A stretch of DNA of 64,000 nucleotides from Endomicrobiia bacterium (GTDB taxonomy: Bacteria; Elusimicrobiota; Endomicrobiia; DTEH01), in the NCBI GenBank assembly GCA_025059805.1, contig JANXDG010000030.1, positions 10,646-74,645 on the forward strand, read 5' to 3'. The notes beneath the pieces were generated by a model. It searched no databases, was not told the origin of the DNA, and saw nothing but the letters and a program-made list of their open reading frames with translations. Shown piece after piece: positions 6,498 to 58,447 of the stretch. The position numbers and the translations under genes are program-made. Each line of letters starts with the position of its first letter. Position 1 is the stretch's first letter.

Positions 6498-7370
6498 CTA
6501 TTTTATAGTTTTAGAATCTTCGTGTTCTAAATATTTTTTAGCTACTTTATTTGCCAAAGTTCTTATTTTTGCAATATAATTTACTCGTTCTTCATAGGAA
6601 AGCACACCGCGTGCATCAAGCTGGTTGAATAAGTGTGAACATTTTAACACAAAATCATATGCTACAATATACAAATCTTGTTCAAGCAAACGTAAACATT
6701 CATTATAATGATCTTCAAAATGTTGTTTTATAACTTTATAGTTTGATAACTCAAAATTATATTTACACCATTGACGTTCATCTTCAAAATGTAAATCTCC
6801 ATAACTTAAATCTTTTGTCCATAAAATTTCAAATATAGAATTCTTCTGTTGAGAAATCATAGCAAGCCGTTCCAAACCATAAGTAATCTCGCAAGAAATA
6901 GGATCAAGATCAATACCACCAACTTGTTGAAAATAAGTAAACTGTGTTATCTCCATACCGTCAAGCCATACCTCCCAACCTAACCCCCAAGCACCAAGTG
7001 TGGGTGATTCCCAATCGTCCTCTACAAATCTTATATCATGCTGTTTAATTTTTATTCCAATTGTTTCTAACGAAGCTAAATACATCTGTTGAACATTGTC
7101 AGGAGAAGGTTTAAGTATAACCTGATATTGATAATAATGTTGTAGCCTATTTGGATTTTCAGCATATCTACCATCGGTTGGTCTCCTACAAGGTTCAACA
7201 TATGCTACCTTCCATGGTTTCTTACCTAAACATCCAAAAAATGTCGCTGGATTAAACGTTCCCGCACCTTTTTCTATATCATACGGTTGCCATAAAAGAC
7301 AATCCTGCTTCATCCAAAATTTGTTTAAAGACATTATTATATCTTGAAATAATATTTTCTGTACTTTCAT
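6498..7370 (-). CDS. glyQ: Glycine--tRNA ligase alpha subunit
   Basis: 290 aa; [12 protein letters not shown]...[18 protein letters not shown] is a strong match to GlyQ. Confidence 0.92.
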
Positions 7371-13972: not shown

Positions 13973-15733
13973 TTATTCGTCAAAATTAAGTTTAATTTTT
14001 AGTTCGTCAAGTTGACGTTTGTTTACTTCTGAAGGAGCACCTGTCAAAAGACAAAATCCTTTCTGTGTTTTAGGGAAAGCTATAACATCACGTATTGATT
14101 CAGAATTAGTAATGATTGCAAGCAGCCTGTCAAATCCCAGTGCTATCCCACCATGTGGTGGTGCACCGTAAGATAAGGCTTCAAGTAAAAATCCAAACCT
14201 ATCATTAATTTCTTGTTCATCTAAATTAAGAATACGAAATATTTTTCTTTGTAGATTAGGATCATGAATTCTTATACTTCCTCCACCTAATTCTATACCG
14301 TTTAATACTATATCATATGCACGTGACCGTACTTCTGATGGATTTTCGTCTAACAGTTGTAAATCTTCCTGTTTGGGTGAGGTAAATGGATGATGAACAC
14401 TTACTAAACGATTTTCTTCTTCTGAAAATTCAAATAATGGAAAATCTACCACCCATACAAATTTGTATTCATCTTTTTTTATAAGATTTAATTCTTTTGC
14501 AACTTTTTGTCTAACCAAGCCTAAAAGTTCACAACTTTTCTTATGTTCACCTGCAGAAAAGAATAGTATCTCGCCACCTTTAAGATTTAATCTTTGCGAC
14601 AGATTATTTAATTCCTTCTCTGAAAAGAATTTTACTATGTTTGATTCAAACTTTTCCCCGTCGTATTTCATCCATGCAAGTCCTTCACCGCCACAACTTT
14701 TCGCAAATTCTATGTATTTATCAATCATTTGTCTTGTAAAAAACTCACCTTGTGGTACAACAATAACATTCACTTCACCATGGTTAGAAATTATGTTCCT
14801 AAAAACTTTAAATTCAGTATTAATAAATACATCAGTAACATTATTTATTTCAAACCCATACCTTAGATCTGGCTTATCCGTACCATACCTGGAAATTGCC
14901 TGTTGGTATGAAATACGATAAAACTGTATTTTTAACGAACCACCGGATATATATTCAAAAATTTTTGATAATAAACTTTCGGTAATAGACATAACATCAT
15001 CTTCTGTAACAAAAGAAAGTTCGTAGTCAATCTGTGTAAACTCAGGCTGTCTATCAGCACGAAGGTCTTCATCACGAAAACAACGGACAATTTGGAAATA
15101 TTTATCAACCCCGGCTATCATAAGGATTTGTTTAAACAGTTGTGGTGATTGCGGTAACGCGTAAAATGTCCCAGGGTTTAACCTAGAAGGTACTAAAAAA
15201 TCGCGTGCTCCTTCAGGTGTTGATTTTGTAAGAAAAGGTGTCTCAACTTCTATAAAACCTTCATTAACAAAAAAATTTCTTATCACTGCCATTAAACTGC
15301 TACGAAGTTTCAACATATTCAACATTTCTTGTCTGCGTATGTCAAGATAACGATATTTTAATCTAAGTTCTTCGGATACCTCAGCATATTCTGTAACTTC
15401 AAATGGTAAAACTTTTGAAGTATTTATGATTTCTAAATCTTTACATAAGATTTCAACTTCACCTGTTGGTATCTTAGTATTTTCAGTACCTTCGGGCCTT
15501 CTTCTTACAATACCACAAATTTTTATTACATATTCACTTCTTAACTTTTCTGCTTTACTAAATAACTCTTTATCTTCTGGTTGAAACACTATTTGTACAA
15601 CTCCTTCCCTATCTCTAAGATCTACAAATATTACTCCGCCATGGTCACGTCTTGAATGTACCCAGCCATATAGGCAAATTTCGTTTCCAATGTGACTGCT
15701 GTTAATCTGTCCACAATATAATCTTTTTTGCAT
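13973..15733 (-). CDS. aspS: Aspartate--tRNA ligase
   Basis: 586 aa; CGQINSSHIGNEICLYGWVHSRRDHGGVIFVDLRDREG is the N-terminal OB anticodon-binding domain, followed by class II catalytic-core motifs. Confidence 0.92.
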   Translation of the reverse strand: MQKRLYCGQINSSHIGNEICLYGWVHSRRDHGGVIFVDLRDREGVVQIVFQPEDKELFSKAEKLRSEYVIKICGIVRRRPEGTENTKIPTGEVEILCKDLEIINTSKVLPFEVTEYAEVSEELRLKYRYLDIRRQEMLNMLKLRSSLMAVIRNFFVNEGFIEVETPFLTKSTPEGARDFLVPSRLNPGTFYALPQSPQLFKQILMIAGVDKYFQIVRCFRDEDLRADRQPEFTQIDYELSFVTEDDVMSITESLLSKIFEYISGGSLKIQFYRISYQQAISRYGTDKPDLRYGFEINNVTDVFINTEFKVFRNIISNHGEVNVIVVPQGEFFTRQMIDKYIEFAKSCGGEGLAWMKYDGEKFESNIVKFFSEKELNNLSQRLNLKGGEILFFSAGEHKKSCELLGLVRQKVAKELNLIKKDEYKFVWVVDFPLFEFSEEENRLVSVHHPFTSPKQEDLQLLDENPSEVRSRAYDIVLNGIELGGGSIRIHDPNLQRKIFRILNLDEQEINDRFGFLLEALSYGAPPHGGIALGFDRLLAIITNSESIRDVIAFPKTQKGFCLLTGAPSEVNKRQLDELKIKLNFDE

Positions 15734-15776: not shown

Positions 15777-16520
15777 TTACTTTATCTGAACATCATACCT
15801 TCTTGTTCTTAATTTTGCCCATTCCCAACAATATTCGTACAAATGTAACCCTTTTGATGAAACTATAATTTCGCCATTACCTACTCCAATCTCTGACGCC
15901 ATATATTGCTTTAACAATTCCATACCTGCAAGGTTTGACGGCATCCCTCCCCATAAGTCCCATGAACGAAAATAGATTATAAAATGCAACTTGTTATATC
16001 TGATCCTTGTATCAATTATCCTGCAACATGGCGGATCTTTAAGTTTAATGTCCGTAGGCATACCAATCTCAAGTGTACATTGGTTAGTTTCATAACCCTC
16101 GGTTTTATAAATATTTATTACTTCTTGAATGGGATTTATCTTGCAAACAATCTCTTTTTCTTTACCATTCTCATCAAGAATTTTTATTTTTGGATTTACT
16201 AATCGTTCACCATATGTATAATCTTCAGTCGCGGTTTTCTCATCAGTTAGGAGATAATTTAAATACTGTTGAACATATTCCATAGAAGTTGGTGCTGGTA
16301 TCCCACAACCTTCAGGGATAATAGGTATTATCTGGTGTTCCGGTTTACGTACGCGTATCACAACATAATCAAATTCTAACCTACGTTGCCCTTTATAACT
16401 GCCTCTTTCAACTGTGTATACATATCCATACTGCAAAATTTTGTCTAAACATTGATACCAGGCATCGTCAAGGTCAAACGCGTCAATAAAAACAGGTGTC
16501 AAAAATTTTTCTTCTTTCAT
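15777..16520 (-). CDS. Thymidylate synthase family protein, short archaeal-type (ThyA-like / possible pyrimidine hydroxymethylase)
   Basis: 247 aa. The C-terminal half aligns by eye to the ThyA catalytic core: PCC (ThyA PCH nucleophile), FRSWD (QRSCD), GMPSNLAGMELL (GLPFNIASYALL), KGLHLYE (GDTHLYSNH). Too short for canonical bacterial ThyA (about 264-320 aa), so archaeal-type. Confidence 0.6.
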   Translation of the reverse strand: MKEEKFLTPVFIDAFDLDDAWYQCLDKILQYGYVYTVERGSYKGQRRLEFDYVVIRVRKPEHQIIPIIPEGCGIPAPTSMEYVQQYLNYLLTDEKTATEDYTYGERLVNPKIKILDENGKEKEIVCKINPIQEVINIYKTEGYETNQCTLEIGMPTDIKLKDPPCCRIIDTRIRYNKLHFIIYFRSWDLWGGMPSNLAGMELLKQYMASEIGVGNGEIIVSSKGLHLYEYCWEWAKLRTRRYDVQIK

Positions 16521-17332
16521 ATACCAACCTGAGACAAATTAAAATTCTTTGTATAAGTTTCACCATCTTCTGTTTTTAACTCTACTGTAACCAATTCTTT
16601 TATGCAATCAATACCAATTACTTTACCTTCACCGTCTGGAGTTTTTATTTTACCACCTATTTTAGGAAATTTCTCAACTGCTTCTTTATAAAATTGATAT
16701 TCATAAAAAAGACAACATTTTAATCTATTACATAAACCTGACAATTTTGGTATGTTTAAAGTAAGTTGTTGAACTTTTGCCATTTCAACAGAAATAGACT
16801 CAAATTTTTTTATCCAACGTTTACAACAAAGTTCATATCCACAAACTCCGATACCGCCTAAAATCTTTGTTTCATCACGTACTCCAATTTGTTTCATCTC
16901 AATTCGTATTTTGAACTTATGTGCTAATTCATGTATTAACTTTTTTAGATTAACTGGTTTTTCTTGTGTGTAATATACATAAAGTTTAGTTCTGTCAAAA
17001 GAATAAAGTGCTTGTACAACTTTTATTGGTAGATCATAGTTTTTAACGACTTGTTTTATAGTTTTAAGAACTTCTTGAGACTTTTGTAAATTCTCTTTTA
17101 TACGCTGAATGTCTTGTTGGTTAACTTTACGTATAAGTTTATAAAGATTTTTTTTGTCAATTTTGCTTTCTTCTACTATCTTTTCTTCAGAACTAACAAC
17201 ACCAACATCATATGTATTTTCAATAAAAACAACTACTTTATCACCTATTTTAAGATCAATCTTTTCTATATTTTCTGCTAAAACTTCCTTGCTATCACTA
17301 AGTTTAACATTAACTATATGTCGTTGGTGCAT
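16517..17332 (-). CDS. ricT: PSP1-domain protein RicT/YaaT
   Basis: PSP1 C-terminal region with conserved Cys cluster (GVCGYELCCKRW...SGLCNRLKCC). Sits in the conserved position downstream of holB. Confidence 0.75.
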   Translation of the reverse strand: MHQRHIVNVKLSDSKEVLAENIEKIDLKIGDKVVVFIENTYDVGVVSSEEKIVEESKIDKKNLYKLIRKVNQQDIQRIKENLQKSQEVLKTIKQVVKNYDLPIKVVQALYSFDRTKLYVYYTQEKPVNLKKLIHELAHKFKIRIEMKQIGVRDETKILGGIGVCGYELCCKRWIKKFESISVEMAKVQQLTLNIPKLSGLCNRLKCCLFYEYQFYKEAVEKFPKIGGKIKTPDGEGKVIGIDCIKELVTVELKTEDGETYTKNFNLSQVGI

Positions 17333-18216
17333 ATTTGCCTTAACCTTACTAAAAAAGTCTCCAAAAGTATTCTATAGTCAATATTGTATCTAAATTCTTT
17401 TATATAACTCTCTACTTCGTCAAGAAATTGAAAATATCCTTCGTTAAAATTAAAGTTCTTATCTAAAAAGTTTTCAAATAGACTCAACAAAAAATATTTT
17501 GCAAAATTTTTATCTACAACAACATCATCCAAAACTCTTTGTAAATCAAACAATGTGGAACCAAAAATATTAATATCTAAATTTTTAAAACGTTTTGTAT
17601 ATTCAATTTCTTCTATTGACCCCAAAACAGAAGTTTCTGGTAACATATTATCTTTTACAATCTCATTTATTGTTTTTTTATCCAATGGCAAAAATTTCAC
17701 TTGTTGACACCGAGATAATACAGTTTTTGGCAAAAGACCAATTGATGTTGTTATAAGGATAACAACACAATTAATTGGTGGTTCTTCTAAAAGTTTTAGT
17801 AGAGAATTAGCAGCATCTCTTTGTAAGGTTTCTGCCGAATCAATTATAACAACTTTGTATTTATTTGAAAATGATGTCAATGAACAAAAATGTTTCACAT
17901 ATCTTATAGTATCTATACTTATTACGTTGGCTTTTTCTGTTTTCTCAAGTAATCTATCTTGAAAGTCAAAATCTACAACTATGACATCAGGATGTATTTT
18001 ATCATCCACTTGTATACAAGTATCACATTTATCACAACTATACCCTTCATATGGTTTTTCACACATTAAAGATTTTACAAACTGAATTGCAGTAAACTTT
18101 TTCCCTACCCCTTTTACACCATAAAATATGTATGAATGTTTAACACTTCCAGATTTTATATCGTTTAATAATAAGTTTATTGCATATTCTTGACCAAAAA
18201 CATCTTTGAAGCTCAT
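17314..18216 (-). CDS. holB: DNA polymerase III delta-prime subunit
   Basis: AAA+ Walker A FYGVKGVGKKFTA and a zinc-module-like CDKCDTCIQV. Lies downstream of tmk. Confidence 0.8.
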   Translation of the reverse strand: MSFKDVFGQEYAINLLLNDIKSGSVKHSYIFYGVKGVGKKFTAIQFVKSLMCEKPYEGYSCDKCDTCIQVDDKIHPDVIVVDFDFQDRLLEKTEKANVISIDTIRYVKHFCSLTSFSNKYKVVIIDSAETLQRDAANSLLKLLEEPPINCVVILITTSIGLLPKTVLSRCQQVKFLPLDKKTINEIVKDNMLPETSVLGSIEEIEYTKRFKNLDINIFGSTLFDLQRVLDDVVVDKNFAKYFLLSLFENFLDKNFNFNEGYFQFLDEVESYIKEFRYNIDYRILLETFLVRLRQICTNDI

Positions 18217-18239: not shown

Positions 18240-18875
18240 TCAGAGTTTAAACTTTCTTTTTAATATATTTACGATAATATCATGTACTTCTTGCGAAGAT
18301 TTATTGTTAACATCTATTATGTAAAAATTCTTTCTACGATTAGCAAGTTTTAAATATCCTTCACGAATCTTGTGATGAAACTCAAGATCTTCCTTTTCCA
18401 TCCTATCAAAATTTTTTGTTCTGTTTTTGATTCTTGACAATCCTTCATCTGGATGGATATCTAAAATAAATGTTATATCTGGCGTTATACCTCCTACAAC
18501 TAAACGATTCAAAGTTTCAACAAATTTCATCCCTAAACCACGTGCATATCCTTGATAAACAACAGAAGCATCAGCAAATCTATCAGAGATAACAATTTTG
18601 TTTTCTTTCAAACTTGGAGCGATAACTTCAGCAATATGTTGTGCTCGTGCTGCTTCATACAACAACAATTCCGCCATTGGTGTTATTTGCAACCTTGGCG
18701 AAAGTATAATTTTTCTTACCATTTCAGCCATTTTTGTCCCACCAGGTTCCCTTGTTAAAACTACATCGTAACCTTTTTGCTTCAGATGTTCACACAACAG
18801 TTTTGCTTGCGTTGACTTTCCACCACCTTCTGGTCCGTCAAAAACTATAAATAATTTTCTTTGTGTTTTTCTCAT
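18240..18875 (-). CDS. tmk: Thymidylate kinase
   Basis: LFIVFDGPEGGGKSTQAKLL P-loop with a DRF/DR motif; 211 aa. Confidence 0.9.
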   Translation of the reverse strand: MRKTQRKLFIVFDGPEGGGKSTQAKLLCEHLKQKGYDVVLTREPGGTKMAEMVRKIILSPRLQITPMAELLLYEAARAQHIAEVIAPSLKENKIVISDRFADASVVYQGYARGLGMKFVETLNRLVVGGITPDITFILDIHPDEGLSRIKNRTKNFDRMEKEDLEFHHKIREGYLKLANRRKNFYIIDVNNKSSQEVHDIIVNILKRKFKL

Positions 18876-20836
18876 TTACAATATTTTTCTCTGACGAAGT
18901 TTAACTTACCACCAGCTATAATGATATCTTTTTCTTCCTGTGTGAGTTGTAATCTTGTTTTGATAACTTTGTTAGTCCTTTTATGTATTAAAAACACTGT
19001 ATTAAATTGTAATTGTGAATGCAAATTCTCAATTATTATTTCATCTAAATCTTGGATCTCATCATAATTTGTTTCATCAAAAAATTCTAACGGTACTACA
19101 CCAAAGTTGATAAGATTATTTTTATGTATTCTTGCAAAAGATTTTGCTACTACAACACAAATACCATTGTATCGTTGGACAATAGCAGCATGTTCTCTTG
19201 AAGAACCCTGGCCATAATTGTGTCCAGCAATTAACACAAACATTCTTTCTTTTTCAGGAATGTTTTCTATTTTCGTTACGATTTCAGGATACTTATTACA
19301 AAACATATACTTACTAATTGCAGGAATATTAGATCTCAACGATAAAATTTTTGTCCCTGCAGGCAGTATATCATCTGTAGAGATATTATCAGGTAATTTC
19401 TTTAGAACTTTCAATATCATATTATCTGCAAGTGGTGGTATTTCAGGCAAAGGTTTTATATTTGGACCACGAAAAATTTCAACTTGAGTGTTATTCTTTG
19501 GTGGATATATAAAAAGTGGTTTAAAATTAATCTTTTCCGGAATTAATATCTTAGGATATCTACCCAAGACTTTAGGATGAACAATTTCTCCGTATATTGC
19601 TGCGGCAGTTGCTACTTCTACAGATGAAAGATAAACCTTTGCATCTTTAGTACCTGAACGTCCTTCAAAATTACGGTTAAAAGTTCTTAGAGAGATCCCT
19701 GCGCTTATAGGTGCTTGTCCTTGACCTATACATGCACCACATACTGGCTCCATCACACGTACACCAGCATTGTACAAATTTTCTAATAAACCTAGTTTCT
19801 CCAGTATGTACATTACTTTTCTTGAACCGGGATAAACAATAACTGAGACTTTTGGGTTAACTTTACGCCCTTTTAACATCTTAGAAAAAAATATCATATC
19901 TTTTATTGAAGAATTTGTACAACTTCCTATACATACTTGATCAACCTTTAACCCTTCAATTTCATCTACAGAAACAACATTATCTGGTGAATGAGGTTGA
20001 GCAACCATTGGTGATATTTTCGCAAGGTCAAGTTCGTATTCTTCATCATAACTACATCCTTCATCAGGATAGAGGTATTTAAAATCTTTTAGTCTATTAT
20101 GAAATTTAAAGAATTTATATGTCTGACGGTCTGACGGAAAAATTGAACTTGTAAGCCCTAATTCGGTACCCATATTGGTTATAGTAGCGCGGTCGTATAC
20201 TGAAAGTATTCTTATTCCTTCGCCTGTATACTCAAAAATTTTGTTTACTCCACCTTTAACCGTAAATTGCTTTAAAAGATATAGTATTATATCTTTTGCA
20301 GAGACAAATTCTTGCAGTTTATTTTTCAACTTAATATTAACAACTTTCGGCATACGTAAAGAAAAAGGTTCACCTGCTAATGCACACGCAACTTCTAACC
20401 CACCAACACCTATCGCTAACATTCCAACAGCTGAAGATGTAGGAGTATGACTATCAGAACCTATAAGTGTTGAACCTGGTTTTGAAAAATTCTCAAGATG
20501 TAGTTGGTGACAAATACCATTACCTGCTGGTGAGAAAATTATACCATACTTTGCTGCTACAGTTTGCAAGTATTTATGATCATCTGAATTTTCAAAAGAA
20601 GTTTGTAATGTATTATGGTCAACATAGGAAACTGCTAAACTAACCCTAACTTTTTTGTTCTTTTTATTGCATACAATGCTTTCGTATTGAAGATATGCAA
20701 GTGTACCGGTAGCGTCCTGCGTTAAAGTTTGATCAATTTTTAACTTAATAGGTTCTAATGGTTCAGGTATCTTTTTGTTATTACCTAAAATATGTGATAA
20801 AATGATTTTTTGTGTTAGGTTAAGTCTTGGTTTCAT
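18872..20836 (-). CDS. Aconitase-family hydratase, fused large+small subunit type (Aquifex-type putative aconitate hydratase, about 650 aa)
   Basis: GSDSHTPTSSAVGMLAIGVGGLE, CIGSCTNS and CGACIG Fe-S ligand motifs, plus a C-terminal swivel domain. The length matches the short Aquifex-type aconitase class. Confidence 0.78.
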   Translation of the reverse strand: MKPRLNLTQKIILSHILGNNKKIPEPLEPIKLKIDQTLTQDATGTLAYLQYESIVCNKKNKKVRVSLAVSYVDHNTLQTSFENSDDHKYLQTVAAKYGIIFSPAGNGICHQLHLENFSKPGSTLIGSDSHTPTSSAVGMLAIGVGGLEVACALAGEPFSLRMPKVVNIKLKNKLQEFVSAKDIILYLLKQFTVKGGVNKIFEYTGEGIRILSVYDRATITNMGTELGLTSSIFPSDRQTYKFFKFHNRLKDFKYLYPDEGCSYDEEYELDLAKISPMVAQPHSPDNVVSVDEIEGLKVDQVCIGSCTNSSIKDMIFFSKMLKGRKVNPKVSVIVYPGSRKVMYILEKLGLLENLYNAGVRVMEPVCGACIGQGQAPISAGISLRTFNRNFEGRSGTKDAKVYLSSVEVATAAAIYGEIVHPKVLGRYPKILIPEKINFKPLFIYPPKNNTQVEIFRGPNIKPLPEIPPLADNMILKVLKKLPDNISTDDILPAGTKILSLRSNIPAISKYMFCNKYPEIVTKIENIPEKERMFVLIAGHNYGQGSSREHAAIVQRYNGICVVVAKSFARIHKNNLINFGVVPLEFFDETNYDEIQDLDEIIIENLHSQLQFNTVFLIHKRTNKVIKTRLQLTQEEKDIIIAGGKLNFVREKYCK

Positions 20837-42852: not shown

Positions 42853-44787
42853 CTATTTAGATAAATATTTTGTTACATTAGGAAATAAAGAAAGGTCCGT
42901 ATGTGGAATAAATAGTGTTGAACTATATTCATTCATATACATAGACATGCTTGAAAGATCAATATATGTCATTTTTTGTTGTGTTTTATAAATTCTATCT
43001 CTTGCAGATTGTGATAATGTATATAAAATAGCACCTAACAAAGATGTATTGCCAGCAACAACAAACTTACTCTCTTCAATATCAGGTAAAAGTCCTAATA
43101 TCTGTGCTTTCTTTATATCAATATAACTTCCAAATCCACCACAGATAAAAATTTTCTTTATGTCAGAAAAACTTAAATGTAAATACTTCAATAACGTATG
43201 TAATCCATGAAAAATAGCACCTTTTGACCTCAGTATATTTTGGATATCACTCTCAGAGATCACAATATCTCTATTGTTGCCAGTATGTTCTTTACCGACA
43301 AGTATAAATTCATTTTCACCTATTTCATTTTGTCTTATTCTTTTTTGTAGTTGTGGTTCTAATATGCTTTTATTAAATTTACCAGAACGATCTATTATCC
43401 CAGCTTTGTATAACTCAGCAGGTAAACCTATTAATCCAGAACCACAAATTCCAATAGGTTTTGTATTACCGATCACTTTGTAGTCAACCCTGCCATTCAC
43501 AATTTTTACATCTTCAATTGCACCTTCTACTGCTAACATCCCTGAAGAAATATCTATCCCCTCAAATGCAGGGCCACAAGAACAAGCTGCAGCTACAAGA
43601 AAATCCTTATTCCCAACAACAATTTCTCCATTAGTACCTAAATCAAGTAAAACACATATGTCATCAGAAACATCTATTTGACAAGAAACAACCCCGCCTA
43701 CTATATCACCTCCAATGTAAGACGCTACCAATGGTAAACAGTAAACTCGTGCTTCTGGATTTATCATCAACCCGAGTTGTTTTGCAACAGTAACCGGTGG
43801 TCTATTTACCACAGGGACATATGGTTCCCGACGGATATACTTAGCAGGAAGATTTAGTAAGAAATGTATCATTGTTGTATTCCCTGCAAAAACTACAGCA
43901 TATATATCTCTTAAATCAACTCCGTTTTCTGCTATTATATAGTATATAAGTTCGTTAATTGTTTCTAATACTTTTTGATTAAGCATTTCAAGACCTGAAG
44001 TTTCTTCAGAATATACAATGCGCGTTATAATATCAGCACCAAAAGTAATCTGTTTGTTTATAGAACATACGCTTCCTAATATTTTAAAATCAGTAATATT
44101 TAAAAGTGTCACAACTATTGTTGTAGTTCCAACATCTACAGCTATGGCATACAAGTTTCTTTTTTCTTTGCGAACTTCACATATTTCATACAATAGCTCT
44201 GGAAATAGATATTTTTGAACTAATACCACTGTGATGTTCCAGTTGTTCACACGCAAAATTTCTGGTAAAGTTTTAACAACTGAATAGTCGTCAATAATAA
44301 CTTTTAATTTCTCTTGTTGTGAAACGTAAGTTACTAACCGGTCCGTATCTGAAACATAATCCTCAATAGAAGGGGATGGAAGGTTTAAATGTATCATCTT
44401 TGCTATAGGAGAAATATCAAATCCATCTAAAACAAGTTTTTTTTCCAAATTGTGTTTATCAAAATATGAACTAGTAATAAAAACATCTTTTAATTTCTTA
44501 ATTTCATCTATTGGATTTAATAATTCTACAACAATATCAGACAACGGCTGTGTTTCACACGCAAGAACTATATTTTGTTGTTTCTCTTCCTCTGAAATAA
44601 ACTGAGAAAATTTGGTAACAAAATTGCCGTTTACAATTTTTATTTTGCACTTACCACAAACTCCTTTCCCACCACAGGAAGCAAAAATGTTTACACCAGA
44701 TTTAATCATTGCCTGTAGTAGATCTTGACCCTCAGCTACTTCAATTTCTTTGTTTAATGAAAGCACTTTTACTTTAAATGAATTCAT
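42853..44787 (-). CDS. RACo-type ATP-dependent reductive activase of corrinoid proteins (N-terminal plant-type 2Fe-2S ferredoxin + ASKHA ATPase domain)
   Basis: N-terminal [14 protein letters not shown] 2Fe-2S motif and a C-terminal ASKHA-fold region ([10 protein letters not shown]...LDLGTNGE). It is 644 aa and lies immediately downstream of acsC, as RACo genes typically do. Confidence 0.72.
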
Positions 44788-44813
44788 CTGTTGTTAATAA
44801 ATATTACAAAATC

Positions 44814-46145
44814 TTATCCGAAAAGTGATTTTAAAAACTTCGGTATACCTGAAGCTTCTTTTGGTCCTACTATAACTTCCCAGTCAGGTAAAAGATCGTT
44901 TAACTTCCCACTCATTACTGCAACATAGCCTGGAATTATTATTTTCTTATGTTTAACTTTATCATCTACACTTTCTTTTTTTAAAGAATCTACAATTTTT
45001 TCTGGTGTAAATTTTTCTGCTGCCCATGCTGTGAGTACAGAAAGTCCGTCTGTGTCAACTATTAGAAGCCATGAAGGTATCTTTGAATTTAAGATTTCAG
45101 GTTCAACTGAGAAATAAGTTAACGAAAAATTTGTAGTTACAAGCAACGGCGAATTTTCTGATGGTTGTCCTCCAATCTTGTAAAGCTTAGGTTCTACAGT
45201 TACAGGTCGTTGTGGATCCGTATAAATGTTTAATCTCAAAGTTATTAATGCTAAATGTACTTCTGGTTTTACTGTGTTTAAACAAACTATGCTACCGTAT
45301 TTCAAAATTGCTAGAGATCCTAACGATAGATTCGTATTAATATCTTCAGATTCAATAACAACCATCGTTGGGTATCCCACTACTCTCAAATTTTTTTTCA
45401 ATGCTAATCTTCTTACCTGTGTAAGATATTCTATTAGTTGACGATAACTTTTTACCGGGATGTTAAGTATTAGTTCTCTGTATCCCGTCGTAGTAACTAC
45501 AAGATTAACCCTGTTTGCAATTTCATCTAATGTATCACCATTTATTACAACTGGTATATTATATGATTTTGCCACCATCATAATTTTTTCTATTTTATCG
45601 TCATTGTCAAGATGTCCGATTAAAGAAAATTTTCGTACTTTCAACATCTCTTCTATCAATGATATATCACTGCACAACAGTCCTATCGGTACTTCAGGAT
45701 CAATCTGTGATACTATATTTCTTATACGTTCAATATTATTTTGTTCACATTTTAAAATTAACAATTCAGTATGATATTCTTGACCTACACGAATAAAATG
45801 CAAGTTTTTAAACCCGCTAATCCTTTTTGATATTTCATCATCACCAAATGTATCTTTTATCAAAACAGCTAATAAACATGGATTAACAAATGTTTTTTCG
45901 TGACGGAATAACACTGTCTCACCACCAATTTTGTATTTATCAGCAATTGTTATTGTTCGTATTGGCGGTTCAGCAGCTTCAGCTAATATTCTTTTTGTTT
46001 CTTCAGAAACATAAGGACATTTATCTAACGAAACTTTTTTTGCGGCGAGTGCCATTGCAAACGCTAAACATGTAGGAAAGCCACACTCTTTACAGTTTGT
46101 CTTAGGCAAGAGTTTATATATTTCAAGTCCTGTAAGTGTTGGCAT
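44814..46145 (-). CDS. acsC: Corrinoid iron-sulfur protein large subunit (CO dehydrogenase/acetyl-CoA synthase gamma subunit family, AcsC/CdhE-like)
   Basis: N-terminal 4Fe-4S motif LTGLEIYKLLPKTNCKECGFPTCLAFAMALAAKK..LDKCPYVSEE. The C-terminal B12-binding region NIYTDPQRPV...NSPLLVTTNFSLTYFSVE...KIPSWLLIVDTDGLSVLTAWAAEKF...WEVIVGPKEASGI closely resembles my recollection of Moorella AcsC. 443 aa. Confidence 0.8.
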   Translation of the reverse strand: MPTLTGLEIYKLLPKTNCKECGFPTCLAFAMALAAKKVSLDKCPYVSEETKRILAEAAEPPIRTITIADKYKIGGETVLFRHEKTFVNPCLLAVLIKDTFGDDEISKRISGFKNLHFIRVGQEYHTELLILKCEQNNIERIRNIVSQIDPEVPIGLLCSDISLIEEMLKVRKFSLIGHLDNDDKIEKIMMVAKSYNIPVVINGDTLDEIANRVNLVVTTTGYRELILNIPVKSYRQLIEYLTQVRRLALKKNLRVVGYPTMVVIESEDINTNLSLGSLAILKYGSIVCLNTVKPEVHLALITLRLNIYTDPQRPVTVEPKLYKIGGQPSENSPLLVTTNFSLTYFSVEPEILNSKIPSWLLIVDTDGLSVLTAWAAEKFTPEKIVDSLKKESVDDKVKHKKIIIPGYVAVMSGKLNDLLPDWEVIVGPKEASGIPKFLKSLFG

Positions 46146-47991: not shown

Positions 47992-50322
47992 TTAGACTGT
48001 TACAACAATTTGATGTAATTTGTGTTTTGAAAGGAAGGGGACTAAATTTCCGCTAAGCTGTTCTCCATCAACTGTCAATTTTGGTTGGTTTACTTTTTTG
48101 TTAATAATTAAAAACCTGTATTTTGTATTCTTAATTATTAACTCCACTTTTGCTTTCTTAATAAATTCAGGTAAACACGGTGAAACTAAAATTCCATTAA
48201 GACAAGGTCTTATACCAAAAACATATTCTAATGTAACTTTAAACAACCATTGTGCAGAACCTGTATACCATGACCACCCACCTTGACCAAAATATGAACT
48301 ATTAGGTCCGTAAATATCACCACAAGTTACATATGGTTCTGTTTTGTAAAGGTCTGGGTTAGCAGTTGACCTAAAAATTGGATTAAGATTTTTGTAAATA
48401 TACTCAACTTTATCTTTACGTTGTAACAAACACTCCATAAGCAGTGCCCAGCAACCCGCATGAACATACAACCCGCCATTTTCTCGTACACCAGGCGAGT
48501 ATTCAGTTAAATAACCTATTTCTTTATCTGGTTTTGAGTATGCTGGGTATAACAATACTGGTCCGTATTTATGGTATAAATATTTCTCTAAAGAATTTAA
48601 AATCTTTTTCTGTCTGTCTTTATCATCAACTATACCGTTCATTATTGCCCAGGTTTGAGTATTAAGAAATATCATACCTTCTTTATTTTTCCTTGAACCA
48701 ATTAAATCTCCGTTATCTTTTGTAGCACACCAGAACCATTCTCCGTCCCAGCAATATTTGTTAATATTTTCTTTAAGTTTCACTGAGACTTTTTTATACT
48801 TTTCTTTCAAACTATTTGGTACAAACTTTACTTTAAAATGTTCTAAAATTTCTACAAATTCTTTCAAAATACCATATAAAAATTCTGCAAGCCAGACACT
48901 TTCTCCCTTCCAGTTTTTCCCTGCAGCAGAAAGACCATCGTTCCAATCACCACAACCTATAAGTGGTAATCCTCGTTTTGAGAATCTTTTCAATGACAAC
49001 TCTATCGCCTTAATGCAATGTAAATAAAGTGCATATTTCTTTTTATCATCTACAAACTCAACTTTCTCTTTCAGAATATCAATATCACCCGTTAACTTAA
49101 TATACTCATTTGTCACAAATACAAGCCAAAGATAAGGATCTGAATGTTTACTTATAGGACCGTCTTCTGTTACCGGCATCCACCAGTGGTACACATTGCC
49201 ATTTTTAAACTGATGTTTCGCATGGAGTAAAATTTGTTCTTTTGTCTTTTTTGGATCAATATACAAATAAATCATACTATCCTGTAACTGATCTCTATAA
49301 CCATATCCACCTGCTGGCTGGAAATATGCTGTTCTTGCGTTCATTCTGCAGGAAATAGTTTGATACTTTAACCAATAGTTTGTCATTATATCTATTTCTT
49401 TAACTCCTGTTTCTACTTTAACAGTAGATACCAAATCAAGCCAAAATTTTTTAGTTTGTTCAAATAGGACATCTATATTTTTCTCATATTTCTGCACTAA
49501 CATTTTAGCTTGATTCTGATTCTTTGCAACTCCAACTAAAAAAATAACCTGTTTTTCTTCTCCAGGTTGAAAATTTAGTTTACATTTAAAACTTGCAACT
49601 GGATCCACTGTCCTGCCTACAACATTGCTTAATGAAGAAACCTCAAGAGCTTTTGGATTATAAACACTTCTGTAGTTGCCTATAAAATCTTGTTTATCAG
49701 TAGTAAATCTTTCAGGTTTGGTTGAACAACTATGAAATGAAAATAAATCAAGTAAGCTATTTACTTTCTTAGCAAATATTATACCATTGGAATCATACCC
49801 TGTTTCAAAAAATAACTTGTGGAATTCGTTATGTACAGCAGCAGGATCTCTCAACGACCATTCAAGATAAGAATAGAGTTCAATCTCACGAGGTAACACT
49901 TTGTTATTTTTAATTTTTAACCACCAAACCTCAGTTGTATCTTCTGGAGGTACAAATATTGTTGCTTCTATTCTAAAATTATTATAGTTGTTTATAATCT
50001 TTGTATAACCTAAACCGTGAATACATAAGTAGTTTCTAACCTTACCCAACGGTTTATAGCCTAAGGACCATATTCTGTTATTTTCTTTAAAATAAAAAAA
50101 TTTGCCGTATTCTTCCTTAACTAAATCTTGAAACCATTGTGTGATCCTGAATAATGCTGCGTTCTTATAAAACGTATAACCTGTCCCAAGATTAGTAACT
50201 ACACAACCAAACTCTTTAGGACAAATAATGTTACTCCATGGTTTTGGTGTTAACGCTGTAATCACATACTCTTTACCTTCATCAATAAAATATCCATATT
50301 TTGTTTTTAACATTTTTTTCAT
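47992..50322 (-). CDS. GH94-family glycoside phosphorylase (cellobiose/cellodextrin/chitobiose-phosphorylase-like)
   Basis: N-terminus KYGYFIDEGKEYVITALTPKPWSNII...GTGYTFYKNAALFRITQW matches the GH94 N-terminal beta-sandwich. Also has a CGDWNDGLS motif and an (alpha/alpha)6 core; 776 aa. Confidence 0.7.
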   Translation of the reverse strand: MKKMLKTKYGYFIDEGKEYVITALTPKPWSNIICPKEFGCVVTNLGTGYTFYKNAALFRITQWFQDLVKEEYGKFFYFKENNRIWSLGYKPLGKVRNYLCIHGLGYTKIINNYNNFRIEATIFVPPEDTTEVWWLKIKNNKVLPREIELYSYLEWSLRDPAAVHNEFHKLFFETGYDSNGIIFAKKVNSLLDLFSFHSCSTKPERFTTDKQDFIGNYRSVYNPKALEVSSLSNVVGRTVDPVASFKCKLNFQPGEEKQVIFLVGVAKNQNQAKMLVQKYEKNIDVLFEQTKKFWLDLVSTVKVETGVKEIDIMTNYWLKYQTISCRMNARTAYFQPAGGYGYRDQLQDSMIYLYIDPKKTKEQILLHAKHQFKNGNVYHWWMPVTEDGPISKHSDPYLWLVFVTNEYIKLTGDIDILKEKVEFVDDKKKYALYLHCIKAIELSLKRFSKRGLPLIGCGDWNDGLSAAGKNWKGESVWLAEFLYGILKEFVEILEHFKVKFVPNSLKEKYKKVSVKLKENINKYCWDGEWFWCATKDNGDLIGSRKNKEGMIFLNTQTWAIMNGIVDDKDRQKKILNSLEKYLYHKYGPVLLYPAYSKPDKEIGYLTEYSPGVRENGGLYVHAGCWALLMECLLQRKDKVEYIYKNLNPIFRSTANPDLYKTEPYVTCGDIYGPNSSYFGQGGWSWYTGSAQWLFKVTLEYVFGIRPCLNGILVSPCLPEFIKKAKVELIIKNTKYRFLIINKKVNQPKLTVDGEQLSGNLVPFLSKHKLHQIVVTV

Positions 50323-50359
50323 AATTTCTCCTGTGAAAATTTAACCTTTTACAAATTAA

Positions 50360-56068: not shown

Positions 56069-58447
56069 CTACACAGTCACTTCCACTTTGTGTTCTTTAC
56101 CGTCATTAACAATTGGTATTATATCACCTTTTAGAGATTTGCCATCAAGTTTTACAGTTTTTACACTGTAACCATTACCACTCTTATTTTTTATTTCTAT
56201 ATGATATACATCATTACGAATTTCCCGTATTATTTTTACTTTTTTCCATCCAGGTGGTAAACAAGGATCAACACGTAAGCCGTTAATCTCAGGTCTTACA
56301 CCTATCATCCATTGTGTTGCAGCTACAAATAACCAATCAGCTGAACCTGTCAACCAAGTGAACGCACCTTCACCATAACGTGGATTACCCGGTCCTATTA
56401 GATACTCTGGTAAAACATATGGTTCTGTTTTAAACACTTCTATGTTCTTATTCCTACTAAGTGGTAATAATTTTACAAAAGTTTCGTATGCCTGTCTTGC
56501 TCTTTTAAGTTTTAAATCTGCCATTATTTTAAACGCACCTGCATGAGAAAAAATAGCAGCGTTCTCTTTTGTACCAACAGCAAATGTTGTTATTCTTCCG
56601 ATACGAGGGTTGTATACAGTATATGCTGGTTTAAACAAAACAGGTCCATAAGGTGTATCAAGTTCACTATCTATAATTTTCAATATTTTTTCTAATTTAT
56701 TTTCATCAGGTATTTCTGCAAGTATTGCCCATGTTTGTGCATTGAGTTGAATATTACCTTCCTTATTCTTCTTTGAGCCAACAGGTTCTCCATAATCGTT
56801 AAATGCGTAAATGTACCAACTACCATCCCATGCATATTTGTTTATCAAATTTTTCATATATTCATAATTTTTCCTGCATTTATCAACAGTTTGTTTATCT
56901 CCGATAATATCTGCTAATTCTTGTAAATGTTTAAGTGCAACACAAAGGCCCATACCAAGCCATACACTTTCACCTTTACCTAAAATACCAGTTCTGTCAA
57001 AAGCGTCGTTCCAATCTTGCGTACCAATAAGTGGTAATCCGCGTTTACTCTTCGCTACATTTAACAAAAACATAACAGCACGTTTTATGTGTTCATAAAG
57101 TTTTGAATATCCACCATCATAGTATTTCACCTTCTTATGCAAAATCTTAACATCCCCTGTTTCTTTCACATATGCGGTGGCTAAAATTGGTAACCATATT
57201 GGAAAATCAGAAGGTGGAGTATGAGTTGTAGGACCTGTCTCAAGTGACCATCCTGGCAACGGCTGGCCAGTTCTACGTTGATGCTCTGTAAGTTTTATTA
57301 ATATTCTCTTTGAATATTCTGGGTTTAAAGAAACCATTGCCCAGGCGTCCTGTGCAGTGTTTCTATACCCAAACTCGCCACCACCCTCATGGTAAAACGT
57401 AGCACTTCTTCCCCAATAGTTGTTCATATAAATTTGGTACTTAAGCCAAATGTTAACCATTAAATTAAAATCTTTGTCTGGTGTCTCAACATTAACAGTG
57501 TTAAGAATTGTGTTTTTCCAGTGTGCCTTCGTATTTTCAAATATTTGAATGACAGTTTTCACATCACGATATTTATTAACAAGTTTAATTATCTGAGCTT
57601 TGTTTTTTGAAATACCTATTGTTATACAAAAAATTTTTTCTTCACCTGCAGATAATCTTAGTTCATGTTGCAAAACACCTACCATCCCAACACCTGTGAC
57701 TCTATCCGTATTATTACATCGCCCAGAAATAACAGCCTGCGGTGCCTCATAATTTTTTTGCCTTCCATAGAAAAATTCTTCATCAATATCAAAACTATTA
57801 ACTTCTAAACTTGAAGACATAAAACATATGTATGGCCAGATGCGGTTTCTCCATGGTGTACGATATACATAGATTATCTGATTTTTATAATCATATTCGC
57901 CTCTGTAAGTCAATGCATATATATTTCTGATTGATAAATCTTCAAAGTAATCACCTAACATCCATTCAACCACAGGAAAAGTCCTAAGTATCTTTCTATC
58001 ACCACTTTTGTTTATTATCTTTACAATCCACACCTCTAAAGGTTCATCCTGCGGAACAAAATATGTTATTTCTGTTGTTACACCAAAATTTTCCGAACCT
58101 ATAATTGTATAACCTAATCCATGACGACAGTAATATTTTTTTCTAGTTTTAGTAACTGACCAATACTTACCTGTCTCAACATCGTAAATAAACAAAAATC
58201 TTCCCGGATTTTCGTATAAATAATTTTGTGGAGCCCACCTTGTTATTCTATTTTTTTCACAGTCAAGGTAAAAACTATATCCCGATGCTACCTGAGATAT
58301 TAACAAACAATATCTACCATTTGTTAAATAATTAATCCAGGGCCGGGGTGTGTCTGGTCTTTTTATCACAAACTCAGTTCCATCTTTTGAAAAATTACCA
58401 TATTTTGTATAACTTGTATTTGTACTCATCTGTCCATCATCCTCCAT
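56069..58447 (-). CDS. GH94-family glycoside phosphorylase, second paralog
   Basis: N-terminus KYGNFSKDGTEFVIKRPDTPRPWINYLTN...ASGYSFYLDCEKNRITRW, and GTQDWNDAFD. 792 aa, paralogous to 47992..50322. Confidence 0.7.
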   Translation of the reverse strand: MEDDGQMSTNTSYTKYGNFSKDGTEFVIKRPDTPRPWINYLTNGRYCLLISQVASGYSFYLDCEKNRITRWAPQNYLYENPGRFLFIYDVETGKYWSVTKTRKKYYCRHGLGYTIIGSENFGVTTEITYFVPQDEPLEVWIVKIINKSGDRKILRTFPVVEWMLGDYFEDLSIRNIYALTYRGEYDYKNQIIYVYRTPWRNRIWPYICFMSSSLEVNSFDIDEEFFYGRQKNYEAPQAVISGRCNNTDRVTGVGMVGVLQHELRLSAGEEKIFCITIGISKNKAQIIKLVNKYRDVKTVIQIFENTKAHWKNTILNTVNVETPDKDFNLMVNIWLKYQIYMNNYWGRSATFYHEGGGEFGYRNTAQDAWAMVSLNPEYSKRILIKLTEHQRRTGQPLPGWSLETGPTTHTPPSDFPIWLPILATAYVKETGDVKILHKKVKYYDGGYSKLYEHIKRAVMFLLNVAKSKRGLPLIGTQDWNDAFDRTGILGKGESVWLGMGLCVALKHLQELADIIGDKQTVDKCRKNYEYMKNLINKYAWDGSWYIYAFNDYGEPVGSKKNKEGNIQLNAQTWAILAEIPDENKLEKILKIIDSELDTPYGPVLFKPAYTVYNPRIGRITTFAVGTKENAAIFSHAGAFKIMADLKLKRARQAYETFVKLLPLSRNKNIEVFKTEPYVLPEYLIGPGNPRYGEGAFTWLTGSADWLFVAATQWMIGVRPEINGLRVDPCLPPGWKKVKIIREIRNDVYHIEIKNKSGNGYSVKTVKLDGKSLKGDIIPIVNDGKEHKVEVTV

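Follow-up and report, generated by a model that had tools for sequence, protein, structure and literature searches.

Thymidylate synthesis is an essential process and a classic drug target, and the textbook enzyme families that perform it are only two, ThyA and ThyX. The gene at positions 15777–16520 (minus strand) of the 64-kb stretch of Endomicrobiia DNA analyzed here, hereafter the window, raises the question of which reaction is performed by a short and divergent relative of ThyA. According to the list of open reading frames, it starts with ATG and encodes a protein of 247 amino acids, and the NCBI name for this exact protein is "thymidylate synthase [Endomicrobiia bacterium]". Judging from its sequence, we postulate, with a probability of about 0.68, that it is a housekeeping dTMP synthase belonging to an uncharacterised, short and divergent ThyA subfamily. 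On the best reading, this subfamily is sister to the methanogen-type ThyA, yet distinct from it.

Gene neighborhood

Directly upstream of the ThyA-like gene is a PSP1/RicT-like gene (16517–17332, minus strand; PF04468, E = 7e-23), preceded by holB, which encodes the delta' subunit of DNA polymerase III (17314–18216, minus strand; PF13177, DNA_pol3_delta2, E = 1.1e-47), and by tmk, which encodes thymidylate kinase (18240–18875, minus strand; PF02223, E = 1.5e-54; named dTMP kinase by NCBI). These Pfam matches confirmed the neighbors that had been proposed from the letters alone. The TGA stop codon of the PSP1 gene shares four nucleotides with the ATG of the ThyA-like gene, as ATGA, when the junction is read from the sequence, and no minus-strand terminator-like site was found between the four genes. 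This overlap with the end of the tmk-holB-PSP1 block argues for dTMP synthesis. The whole window is co-directional, however, so that tight gene packing in itself says little.

The sequence-only reading had also taken the proximity to tmk as being in line with dTMP synthesis. This proximity is real. As functional evidence we downgraded it, since it occurred in none of 80 related genome loci outside Endomicrobiia and, within Endomicrobiia, is present in some lineages and absent in another; this lack of conservation counts against the dTMP synthase reading, while a Woesearchaeota relative with tmk inside its retrieved locus counts in its favor. The downstream neighbor, named aspS (aspartyl-tRNA synthetase) by NCBI (13973–15733, minus strand), is linked to the ThyA-like gene in the three Endomicrobiia lineages with contigs examined, but not in the 86%-identical L003. 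A scan of the 64-kb window that covered its ORFs of 110 aa or more, some nine excepted (clustered at about 50–64 kb, plus several short ORFs around 29–34 kb and 46 kb), found no thyX, canonical thyA or folA.

Family assignment and predicted fold

The protein matched the Pfam family PF00303 (Thymidylat_synt) with 40.1 bits (E = 3.1e-10), above the gathering cutoff of 24.3, over residues 126–240. Together with homologs in 4,483 clusters at 90% identity (E ≤ 1e-3), this match establishes that it is a real gene and not a chance ORF. It is a ThyA-family protein, with the catalytic Cys and the Arg-Ser-x-Asp motif in place. Thus, both the family match and the aligned catalytic Cys and Arg, on which the sequence-only reading had staked its assignment, were found.

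Among the NCBIfam models, the best match was TIGR03283 (thy_syn_methano), with 100.6 bits against an equivalog cutoff of 174.55. This was also the only full-length match, in which residues 12–232 align collinearly with positions 3–198 of the 201 in the profile. Ten diverse relatives scored 52–110 bits against this model, all under the cutoff. The canonical model TIGR03284 gave 34.4 bits against a cutoff of 108.35, and the NF00249x equivalog models gave 14–37 bits against cutoffs of 325–405. The description of the protein as archaeal-type is therefore right insofar as its nearest curated model is the methanogen one, and wrong insofar as it is not a member of that equivalog.

That both equivalog cutoffs (TIGR03283 and TIGR03284) are missed counts against the dTMP synthase reading, and could also be taken as the mark of a catalytically idle or regulatory paralog that sits beside a real ThyX or canonical ThyA elsewhere in the genome. 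We consider such a paralog very improbable, given that the nucleotide-side catalytic set is near-invariant among relatives that are 33–73% identical to the query, and that degeneration takes another form, as in the homolog P0135, whose N-terminal pseudo-domain has lost both Cys and Arg.

The structure predicted from 100 sequences shows the ThyA alpha/beta fold; it supersedes an earlier model built from 26 close homologs, for which pLDDT was only 72. No solved structure comes close: the best structural match, PDB 9iqc, is a flavin monooxygenase with 21% identity that binds flavin at the position where ThyA binds folate, and no canonical ThyA matched the predicted structure as well as MilA did.

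Active site and substrate

The residues that handle the nucleotide in canonical ThyA are conserved throughout this family, as revealed by alignments and by 100 representatives, 33–73% identical to the query, on which all the following percentages are based. The DPPCCR motif (residues 162–167; 16020–16037, minus strand) contains Cys165 (99%), the nucleophile, which corresponds to E. coli Cys146. The RSWD motif (residues 185–188; 15957–15968, minus strand) aligns with E. coli Arg166-Ser167-Cys168-Asp169, which provide phosphate binding and the catalytic Asp; Arg185 is invariant, while Ser186 and Asp188 are conserved in 98% and 94%. Asn196 (15933–15935, minus strand), the base-specifying residue, with Asn for uracil, aligns with E. 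coli Asn177, and Asn occupies this position in 95% of the representatives. His226-Leu-Tyr228 (15837–15845, minus strand; 98% for His226 and 96% for Tyr228) aligns with His207 and Tyr209, which in canonical ThyA contact the 3'-OH of the deoxyribose. Finally, in Tyr101-Thr-Tyr103 (16212–16220, minus strand; 95% for Tyr101 and 96% for Tyr103), the second tyrosine aligns with E. coli Tyr94. Equivalents of Tyr94, Cys146, Arg166, Ser167, Asp169, Asn177, His207 and Tyr209 are thus all present, with 94–100% conservation, which argues for a dTMP synthase. The motifs quoted in the sequence-only reading (the PCC region, RSWD, PSNLAG and GLHLY) are all present, and translation placed MPSNLAG at residues 193–199 and GLHLY at residues 224–228.

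Two of these residues are diagnostic of the substrate and the reaction. An Asn at E. coli position 177 goes with uracil as substrate, while an Asp at this position goes with cytosine specificity; an Asp retained at position 169 marks an enzyme that is not a flavin-dependent 5-hydroxy-dCMP synthase, since every verified one has Asn there (PMC13326640). The Asn and Asp of the query at these positions argue for dTMP synthesis. The 5-hydroxy-dCMP synthases (9iqc; RB69 gp48 and DLP3 gp80) display the opposite pair, Asp177 and Asn169 in E. coli numbering, against Asn196 and Asp188 in the query (PMC13326640). Likewise, MilA (PDB 5jnh) and the dCMP hydroxymethylase of phage T4, gp42 (PDB 6l18), are cytosine-specific and read the base with an Asp where the query has Asn.

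A few family members, including P0252, do have Asp at the base-specifying position, which would fit an enzyme directed at cytosine or dependent on flavin, like the dCMP/CMP hydroxymethylases and the 5-hydroxy-dCMP synthases of the superfamily. For the query, Asn196, shared by about 95% of the family, and the retained Asp188 led us to exclude the cytosine-specific hydroxymethylase and the 5-hydroxylase, and the identity to 9iqc is only 21%. Moreover, the 5-hydroxy-dCMP synthases of T-even-like phages need oxygen and flavin; their hydroxylation requires molecular oxygen, and these phyla are largely anaerobic. Such an activity is extremely improbable here.

By analogy with canonical ThyA, dUMP would bind with Asn196 reading the uracil, Arg185 and Ser186 holding the phosphate, and His226 and Tyr228 holding the deoxyribose. 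Cys165 would then add to C6 of the uracil, and the activated C5 would receive one carbon from a methylene-tetrahydropterin, which in this bacterium is presumably 5,10-methylene-tetrahydrofolate. Abstraction of a proton and transfer of a hydride would yield dTMP, which would be phosphorylated by the Tmk encoded three genes upstream. The one-carbon donor and the reductant in this scheme are the probable ones by analogy.

The nature of the product is less straightforward. At the position of E. coli Leu143, three residues before the Cys, the query carries Asp162 (66% conserved), and every alignment is gapless here. A bulky hydrophobic residue at this position is believed to keep water out and thereby to permit a methyl product, while Asp or Glu characterizes hydroxymethylases such as the phage enzymes and MilA (PMC13326640). 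An acidic residue at this water-excluding position, common to the query and the cytosine-specific hydroxymethylases, counts against the dTMP synthase reading and would fit a dUMP 5-hydroxymethylase, in which Cys165 addition and methylene transfer would be followed by attack of water on the exocyclic methylene, releasing 5-hydroxymethyl-dUMP that would go into a modified base or serve as a metabolite. The better fit of MilA than of canonical ThyA to the structure model and the missing C-terminal tail point in the same direction. However, the model of the methanogen ThyA, which is accepted as the thymidylate synthase of its hosts, scores Glu above Asp and Asp above Leu at the equivalent position. 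Since that model also favors an acidic residue, Asp162 does not mark the clade as hydroxymethylases, and the rule may not carry over to short enzymes.

The gene occurs in at least 594 species and in core neighborhoods, with no recurring glycosyltransferase, kinase or phage genes nearby, and cells with such a hydroxymethylase would still need a source of dTMP. To our knowledge, hydroxymethyl-uracil is made at the nucleotide level in phages and not in cellular housekeeping; MilA is part of an antibiotic pathway, and T4 gp42 works in the modification of phage DNA, unlike the housekeeping contexts of the query family. The warning in the sequence-only reading that some relatives are pyrimidine hydroxymethylases therefore fails for the cytosine-specific branch and survives for the dUMP branch, through Asp162, as a quite unlikely alternative. 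The product of the putative dTMP synthase is probably methyl rather than hydroxymethyl.

Phosphate site

The query clade departs from both canonical and methanogen-type enzymes at the arginines that bind phosphate. In canonical ThyA, the partner subunit contributes Arg126' and Arg127' to the phosphate of dUMP. Family-wide, this pair is replaced by Asn-Gln (Asn146-Gln147 in the query; 16080–16085, minus strand; 94% and 81% conserved), which counts against the dTMP synthase reading. Two other arginines are conserved. The first is Arg47 (16380–16382, minus strand; 95%), which opens the second beta-strand in the predicted model, and the second is Arg167 (91%), a conserved Arg specific to this clade. 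From their conservation in sequence, Arg47 is a candidate replacement ligand of the phosphate, and we infer that Arg47 and Arg167, provided by the same chain, take the place of the Arg126'/Arg127' pair of the partner subunit.

Substitutions scored against TIGR03283, an indirect probe of the consensus of that model, support the distinction between the two short types. N146R gains 3.8 bits and Q147R 1.5 bits, in line with a preference of the methanogen model for Arg at both positions of the pair where the query clade has Asn-Gln. R47A changes the score by +0.2 bits, so that Arg47 is not required by the methanogen model; neither is Arg167, whereas the query clade conserves both. Meanwhile, Y101A costs 5.8 bits, and Tyr101 is among the features that the two types share, along with the Cys-Leu motif, RSWD with its Trp, the base-reading Asn and, in place of Leu143, a residue that is polar or acidic. 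The methanogen-type enzymes (TIGR03283; e.g., those of Methanothermobacter and Methanocaldococcus) are also short and devoid of the long C-terminal extension. Relative to the 201 positions of the methanogen model, the query has about 45 residues more, the extra length including a variable beta-hairpin at about residues 108–128, and its clade has mainly bacterial hosts, unlike the methanogen type.

Cofactor side

The divergence through the N-terminal half seen in the sequence-only reading was upheld. The Pfam match and all sequence matches to PDB entries are confined to residues 126–241, approximately, and the N-terminal 153 residues alone gave chance matches only, and no relative, against PDB sequences. 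Compared to the canonical enzymes of E. coli, L. casei and human, the query has the same nucleophile and nucleotide-binding residues at 15–21% identity, with an N-terminal half that cannot be aligned. Forcing a global profile alignment with the ThyA of E. coli and human gave zero confidence before residue 100, approximately, and no equivalents of the folate-side residues Glu58, Trp80 and Trp83, nor of Arg21, could be placed by sequence alignment.

The C-terminal end also differs. After His-Leu-Tyr, there are 19 residues in the query and 55 in E. coli, so the last 36 or so E. coli residues are missing. In canonical ThyA, the residues of this tail fold over the folate, which is also bound by the C-terminal carboxylate, and the tail is required to close tightly on the cofactor and to transfer the hydride. 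The earlier estimate of a protein 20–70 residues shorter than canonical ThyA was about right, with 247 aa against 316 aa in L. casei (PDB chain length) and 264 aa in E. coli; the deficit is nearly all C-terminal. Along with Arg126'/Arg127' changed to Asn-Gln and Leu143 changed to Asp, the lost tail separates the query from canonical ThyA, and both this loss and the N-terminal folate elements that cannot be located count against the dTMP synthase reading.

These gaps suggest another way of making dTMP from dUMP, through a non-canonical cofactor arrangement with another pterin or one-carbon donor or a separate reductant, in place of methylene-tetrahydrofolate as the source of both carbon and hydride, or with a single-chain active site instead of one that spans the dimer interface. 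The exchange of the cross-subunit Arg pair for Asn-Gln, with Arg47 and Arg167 conserved in this clade only, is in agreement with it, as is the flavin bound by the best structural match where ThyA binds folate. Furthermore, the nearest curated relative is the methanogen type, for which tetrahydromethanopterin is the supposed cofactor or the cofactor is given as unknown (PMC9012536, PMC9931769). On the other side, a failure to align the folate residues amounts to no more than negative evidence, and no reductase or flavoprotein partner gene recurs beside the gene across the 80 loci. We know of no methanopterin synthesis in bacteria of these phyla. Overall, we consider such an arrangement unlikely.

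A bolder proposal would see in this large, mostly bacterial clade a third type of thymidylate synthase that is built on the ThyA fold but differs in mechanism, with a same-chain phosphate site formed by Arg47 and Arg167, no C-terminal lid and no recognisable folate elements. It might hence use another one-carbon donor or reductant, act as a monomer, or even release 5-hydroxymethyl-dUMP. We put this forward tentatively and regard it as rather doubtful.

Distribution and relevance of the family

Short archaeal-like ThyA homologs had been described as uncommon in bacteria. This is not the case: the family is large, already annotated, and common in several uncultured bacterial phyla. Among the best 120 of the 4,483 homologs, identities were 59–93%, mostly 65–73%. 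Relatives were found in at least 594 species-representative genomes, mostly of Omnitrophota, and also of Endomicrobiia, Thermodesulfobacteriota and some archaea (DPANN, Thermoplasmata). In Omnitrophota, the homologs have a stable core neighborhood formed by PilZ, gpsA, hom and thrC, and no phage context was seen around the genes of the relatives. This housekeeping distribution argues for a dTMP synthase.

Some homologs are interrupted by Hint/LAGLIDADG inteins at or near the active site, one directly before the catalytic Cys and another within the RSWD...N motif. Inteins near the active site are typical of essential enzymes of replication and nucleotide metabolism, and their occurrence here is a further argument for dTMP synthesis.

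Collectively, these findings indicate that the short ThyA type is not an archaeal curiosity: hundreds of uncultured bacterial species carry it under the annotation "thymidylate synthase". If it is a normal dTMP synthase, then this is an ordinary housekeeping gene, and the gain would be an annotation on firmer ground, with a new equivalog model. A different use of cofactor or a different product would mean revising the metabolic reconstructions made for Omnitrophota, Elusimicrobiota and related phyla.

Experimental characterisation of the archaeal enzymes "remains scarce" (PMC9931769), which counts against the dTMP synthase reading, as does the fact that the literature showed no clade member and no purified archaeal-type ThyA making dTMP, nor any short ThyA-like protein characterised in pure form. 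A literature search for MJ0757 gave nothing, and no paper discussing the present protein was found in the literature on thymidylate synthase with Omnitrophota or Elusimicrobia.

One homolog, P0252, is a fusion with thymidine kinase. Such a fusion could serve as a "Rosetta stone" for dTMP synthesis; we discounted it, as P0252 has Asp at the base-reading position and is missing Arg167. Lastly, proteins of this family are 64–70% identical across phyla, which prompted us to consider horizontal transfer from Omnitrophota. In a rough neighbor-joining tree, drawn without support values, Endomicrobiia are placed beside, not inside, Omnitrophota.

Fold and family membership

The open reading frame at 15777..16520 on the minus strand starts with ATG and encodes a 247-aa member of the thymidylate synthase (ThyA) family. 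Its match to the Pfam Thymidylat_synt profile (PF00303) scored 40.1 bits against a gathering score of 24.3 and was limited to residues 126-240. Sequence searches of the PDB, with the single query or with a family profile, returned thymidylate synthases only, covering the C-terminal half only. The four motifs quoted in the sequence-only reading are all present, and translation placed DPPCCR at residues 162-167, RSWD at 185-188, MPSNLAG at 193-199, and GLHLY at 224-228. In a profile alignment to E. coli ThyA, Tyr94, Cys146, Arg166, Ser167, Asp169, Asn177, His207, and Tyr209 of the E. coli enzyme corresponded to Tyr103, Cys165, Arg185, Ser186, Asp188, Asn196, His226, and Tyr228 of the query. These eight catalytic positions were 94-100% conserved among 100 representatives 33-73% identical to the query, and the catalytic Cys (Cys165) and Arg (Arg185) are both in place.

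The divergence of the N-terminal half and the shortness of the protein, which that reading had also pointed out, were both borne out. Residues 1-153 alone found no PDB relative by sequence search, and a forced global profile alignment to canonical ThyA had zero confidence in this half. The query stops at about E. coli residue 228, and essentially all of its shortness is due to the missing last ~36 residues of E. coli ThyA. A first AlphaFold2 model built from 26 close homologs was mediocre (pLDDT 72), and a second one built from 100 diverse sequences reached a pLDDT of 97.1 and a pTM of 0.92.

Relationship to archaeal ThyA and distribution

The methanogen-type ThyA equivalog TIGR03283 was the best match of the query among the NCBI curated models and the sole full-length one, its residues 12-232 aligning to profile positions 3-198 of 201. 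The score of 100.6 bits fell short of the equivalog cutoff of 174.55, and ten diverse relatives of the query reached just 52-110 bits, placing this clade as related to methanogen ThyA but outside of it. Canonical ThyA equivalogs scored 14-37 bits against cutoffs of 108-405. The query is nearest to the archaeal type of ThyA without being a member of the methanogen equivalog. Archaeal thymidylate synthases are themselves essentially uncharacterised, cell extracts given modified folates being the only setting in which dTMP formation has been shown (PMC9931769), and which cofactor the archaeal ThyA clades prefer is a matter of guesswork (PMC9012536). A literature search combining thymidylate synthase with Omnitrophota or Elusimicrobia found no paper on a bacterial short ThyA type.

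Such proteins had been taken to be uncommon in bacteria; this family is in fact common there, and already annotated. A word-indexed search returned 4,483 clusters (90% identity) at E <= 1e-3, and an exhaustive search of 50%-identity representatives returned 1,174 at E <= 1e-3, 148 of them at E <= 1e-30. In the top 120 clusters of the former, identity to the query runs from 59 to 93% (mostly 65-73%), and the named members are nearly all "thymidylate synthase", mostly from Candidatus Omnitrophota. At least 594 genomes in a one-genome-per-species scan carried a relative. The best 80 of these were almost all Omnitrophota MAGs at 64-70% identity, with one Endomicrobia MAG (86%) and one Woesearchaeota archaeon (55%) among them. 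Exact look-ups of other clusters led to Thermodesulfobacteriota/'Deltaproteobacteria', Pseudomonadota, and Thermoplasmata MAGs. Contigs from two MAG assemblies of Endomicrobiia (Elusimicrobiota), GCA_033581535.1 and GCA_026416555.1, match the window, and NCBI already lists the identical protein as 'thymidylate synthase [Endomicrobiia bacterium]'. In a rough neighbour-joining tree without support values, the Endomicrobiia sequences formed their own clade beside Omnitrophota and Planctomycetota-labelled clades, with the Woesearchaeota and Deltaproteobacteria versions just outside.

Active site, substrate, and product

In canonical ThyA, the phosphate of dUMP is held by Arg21, Arg166, and the partner-subunit residues Arg126' and Arg127'. 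This partner-subunit pair aligns to Asn146-Gln147 of the query, residues that are 94% and 81% conserved in the family. We scored point mutants of the query on TIGR03283, which is an indirect probe of the emission preferences of the model and not of its seed alignment. Scores rose with Arg in place of either residue of the pair (N146R +3.8 bits, Q147R +1.5 bits), showing the preference of the model, which is indifferent to Arg47 (R47A +0.2 bits) and Arg167 (R167A -0.1 bits), two residues that are 95% and 91% conserved in the family, respectively. In the predicted structure, Arg167 follows Cys165 by two residues within one beta-strand, and the Arg167 side chain should therefore lie on the face of the nucleophile. 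We infer that Arg47 and Arg167 may replace the cross-subunit Arg pair. The query and the methanogen model have Tyr101 (Y101A -5.8 bits), Asn196 (N196D -3.5 bits), and Trp187 (W187C -2.7 bits) in common, and this model favours Leu after the Cys (C166L +3.0 bits). Unlike canonical and methanogen ThyA, the clade has Asn-Gln for the Arg pair and conserves new arginines at other sites; Asp in the water-excluding place and the lack of a C-terminal lid count as further differences of its active site. A widespread clade that lacks experimental characterisation and a close solved structure is of real but modest interest.

The base and the product can be approached through positions 177, 169, and 143 (E. 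coli numbering), as set out in a 2026 paper on phage 5-hydroxycytosine (PMC13326640). At position 177, Asn stands for uracil and Asp for cytosine. Asn at position 169 marks flavin-dependent 5-hydroxy-dCMP synthases, and all nine tested natural Asn variants made 5-hydroxy-dC. A bulky hydrophobic residue at position 143 is thought to keep water out, permitting a methyl product, and T4-type and MilA hydroxymethylases have Asp or Glu there (PMC13326640). The query has Asn196 at position 177, where cytosine-specific hydroxymethylases have Asp, and Asp188 at position 169, where 5-hydroxy-dCMP synthases have Asn. With these two residues dUMP would be favoured and both cytosine-directed branches disfavoured, which argues for dUMP rather than a cytosine nucleotide as the substrate. 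A PDB comparison found no solved structure closely related to this subfamily, and the ranking of structural neighbours, headed by the 5-hydroxy-dCMP synthase 9iqc, probably reflects a shared compactness, as these proteins are short and lack the canonical C-terminal tail. A common chemistry is not to be read from this ranking, since the diagnostic residues disagree.

Position 143 corresponds to Asp162, three residues ahead of Cys165 and gap-free in all alignments. Taken by itself, this residue favours a hydroxymethyl product, and across the family the position is polar, with Asp in 66% and His in 13%, the remainder being mostly Ser, Asn, or Thr. However, on TIGR03283 the highest-scoring residue here was Glu (102.2 bits), followed by the wild-type Asp (100.6), Ser (100.5), Asn (100.4), His (99.8), Ala (99.5), and Leu (98.1). 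The methanogen type is therefore likewise acidic or polar at this position, and the Leu143 rule does not set the query's clade apart from archaeal enzymes presumed to make dTMP. The earlier caveat that relatives may be hydroxymethylases thus retains Asp162 in its favour and loses its cytosine-directed forms to Asn196 and Asp188. The departures of the active site (Asn-Gln, Asp162, no C-terminal lid) keep two alternatives in play, namely a different cofactor arrangement, which we consider unlikely, and a hydroxymethyl product, which we consider very unlikely. Housekeeping synthesis of dTMP from dUMP would be the most likely function, with a probability of roughly two in three. No thyX, canonical thyA, folA, dut, or dcd was found among the window genes scanned, which comprised the ORFs of >= 110 aa except for about nine (clustered at ~50-64 kb, plus some short ones near 29-34 kb and 46 kb).

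Gene neighbourhood

Directly upstream on the minus strand lies a PSP1/RicT-like gene (16517..17332; PF04468, E = 7e-23), whose stop overlaps the start of the ThyA-like gene as ATGA, followed by holB (17314..18216; PF13177, E = 1e-47) and tmk (18240..18875; PF02223, E = 1.5e-54), both also on the minus strand. No terminator-like site was found on this strand between the four genes, and the frequency of promoter-like matches was that expected by chance. Co-orientation weighs little here because every window ORF of >= 110 aa taken as a gene is on the minus strand. With all of its ~55 genes on the minus strand, a GC content of ~31%, and a steadily negative GC skew throughout, the window is consistent with a single long replichore arm with near-total strand bias.

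We compared 80 related genome loci (the best 80 of at least 594), with up to 6 kb of flank per side where the contig permitted. Genes for tmk, holB, PSP1, and aspS were absent near the ThyA-like gene in these loci, with the exception of a tmk inside the ~9.6-kb Woesearchaeota stretch; the 86% identical Endomicrobia locus likewise lacked aspS over 6 kb. Up to 45 of the 80 loci showed an Omnitrophota pattern in which yjeF-like, acpS, and pdxJ genes lie upstream and the ThyA-like gene is followed by a PilZ gene that overlaps it, gpsA, another PilZ gene, and the genes for homoserine dehydrogenase and threonine synthase. All of these are common housekeeping genes unconnected with nucleotide metabolism. 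In ~35 of the 80 loci (L004-L078), the small PilZ-domain gene, of the c-di-GMP-receptor type, shares a few bases with the 3' end of the ThyA-like gene, a tight and conserved pairing.

Among the contigs examined, three Endomicrobiia lineages (that of the window and those of homolog clusters P0273 and P0284) share aspS-phoH-HD-ybeY downstream. The aconitase-tmk-holB-PSP1 block upstream occurs in the window lineage and the P0273 contigs, and lipid A/LPS genes take its place in the P0284 genome. Adjacency to tmk, previously read as fitting dTMP synthesis, is real in the window but shallow; it is a lineage-specific accident of gene order and weak functional evidence. The aconitase-family protein (654 aa, 18872-20836) overlaps tmk by 4 nt and accompanies the block in the P0273 contigs (L085-L087), although it is not a usual companion of replication and nucleotide genes. 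These contigs also carry, at ~5757-6760 between the ThyA-like gene and aspS, short opposite-strand phosphoglucomutase domain III/IV fragments that look like a decayed PGM/PMM gene at a junction of variable Endomicrobiia gene order.

Inteins, fusions, and other homologs

Insertions at three or more different sites bring about 20 of the 150 representative clusters to lengths of 490-990 aa, and the insertions scanned carried Hint, intein-splicing, or LAGLIDADG signatures. In cluster P0150 the intein sits directly ahead of the catalytic Cys ('GDPP|C...HN|CLRHID'), which would act as the intein +1 residue, and that of P0189 separates RSWDLF from SGFPVNL within the RSWD...N motif. Other homologs are broken in their N-terminal half. 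Inteins that interrupt active-site motifs typically belong to essential proteins of replication and nucleotide metabolism, and the placement seen here fits a core role for the family. Insertion-bearing homologs include P0124, P0130, P0174, and P0241, the last two (~980-990 aa) appearing to have two inteins each.

In P0252 (422 aa), a short ThyA-like domain is fused to a thymidine kinase (PF00265). We gave this fusion no weight in assigning dTMP synthesis to the query, as the base-reading residue of its ThyA-like part is Asp ('LPFDLGG') and Cys-Leu-Arg is replaced by Cys-Leu-Ile, without Arg167; this part may act on cytosine nucleotides. P0135 (498 aa) carries, ahead of its complete domain, a degenerate extra C-terminal half-domain from which both Cys ('RPNLAL') and Arg ('YTSMD') have been lost, so that the protein may be a built-in pseudo-dimer. 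P0004 (294 aa) has an internal duplication of the 'YLxYLLTG...YGERLVDPKV' segment.

Other genes of the window

Wood-Ljungdahl-type parts occur at 42853-46145, flanked by an ilvE-like aminotransferase and a glycosyltransferase. They comprise a RACo-type reductive activator of corrinoid proteins (42853..44787) and an adjoining CdhD/AcsD-like corrinoid iron-sulfur subunit (44814..46145), which may bear on the one-carbon carriers of this organism; no AcsB or AcsE was seen among the window genes scanned. An electron-transfer flavoprotein pair is encoded at 902-2956; the 415-aa alpha subunit carries a 2x[4Fe-4S] ferredoxin domain at its N-terminus, an architecture of the FixB-like or bifurcating type. 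Two ComEC-family competence proteins are present, one of 1,132 aa (25127-28525) that also contains an SNase nuclease domain and DUF4131, and one of 748 aa with the usual metallo-beta-lactamase domain (36309-38555). The region 47992-58447 holds two GH94 glycoside phosphorylases of the cellobiose/chitobiose-phosphorylase type, the first Pfam-confirmed (47992..50322) and the second assigned by N-terminal resemblance only (56069..58447). Several genes between them are putative sugar-uptake and glycoside-processing genes, judged by their N-terminal sequences rather than by Pfam.
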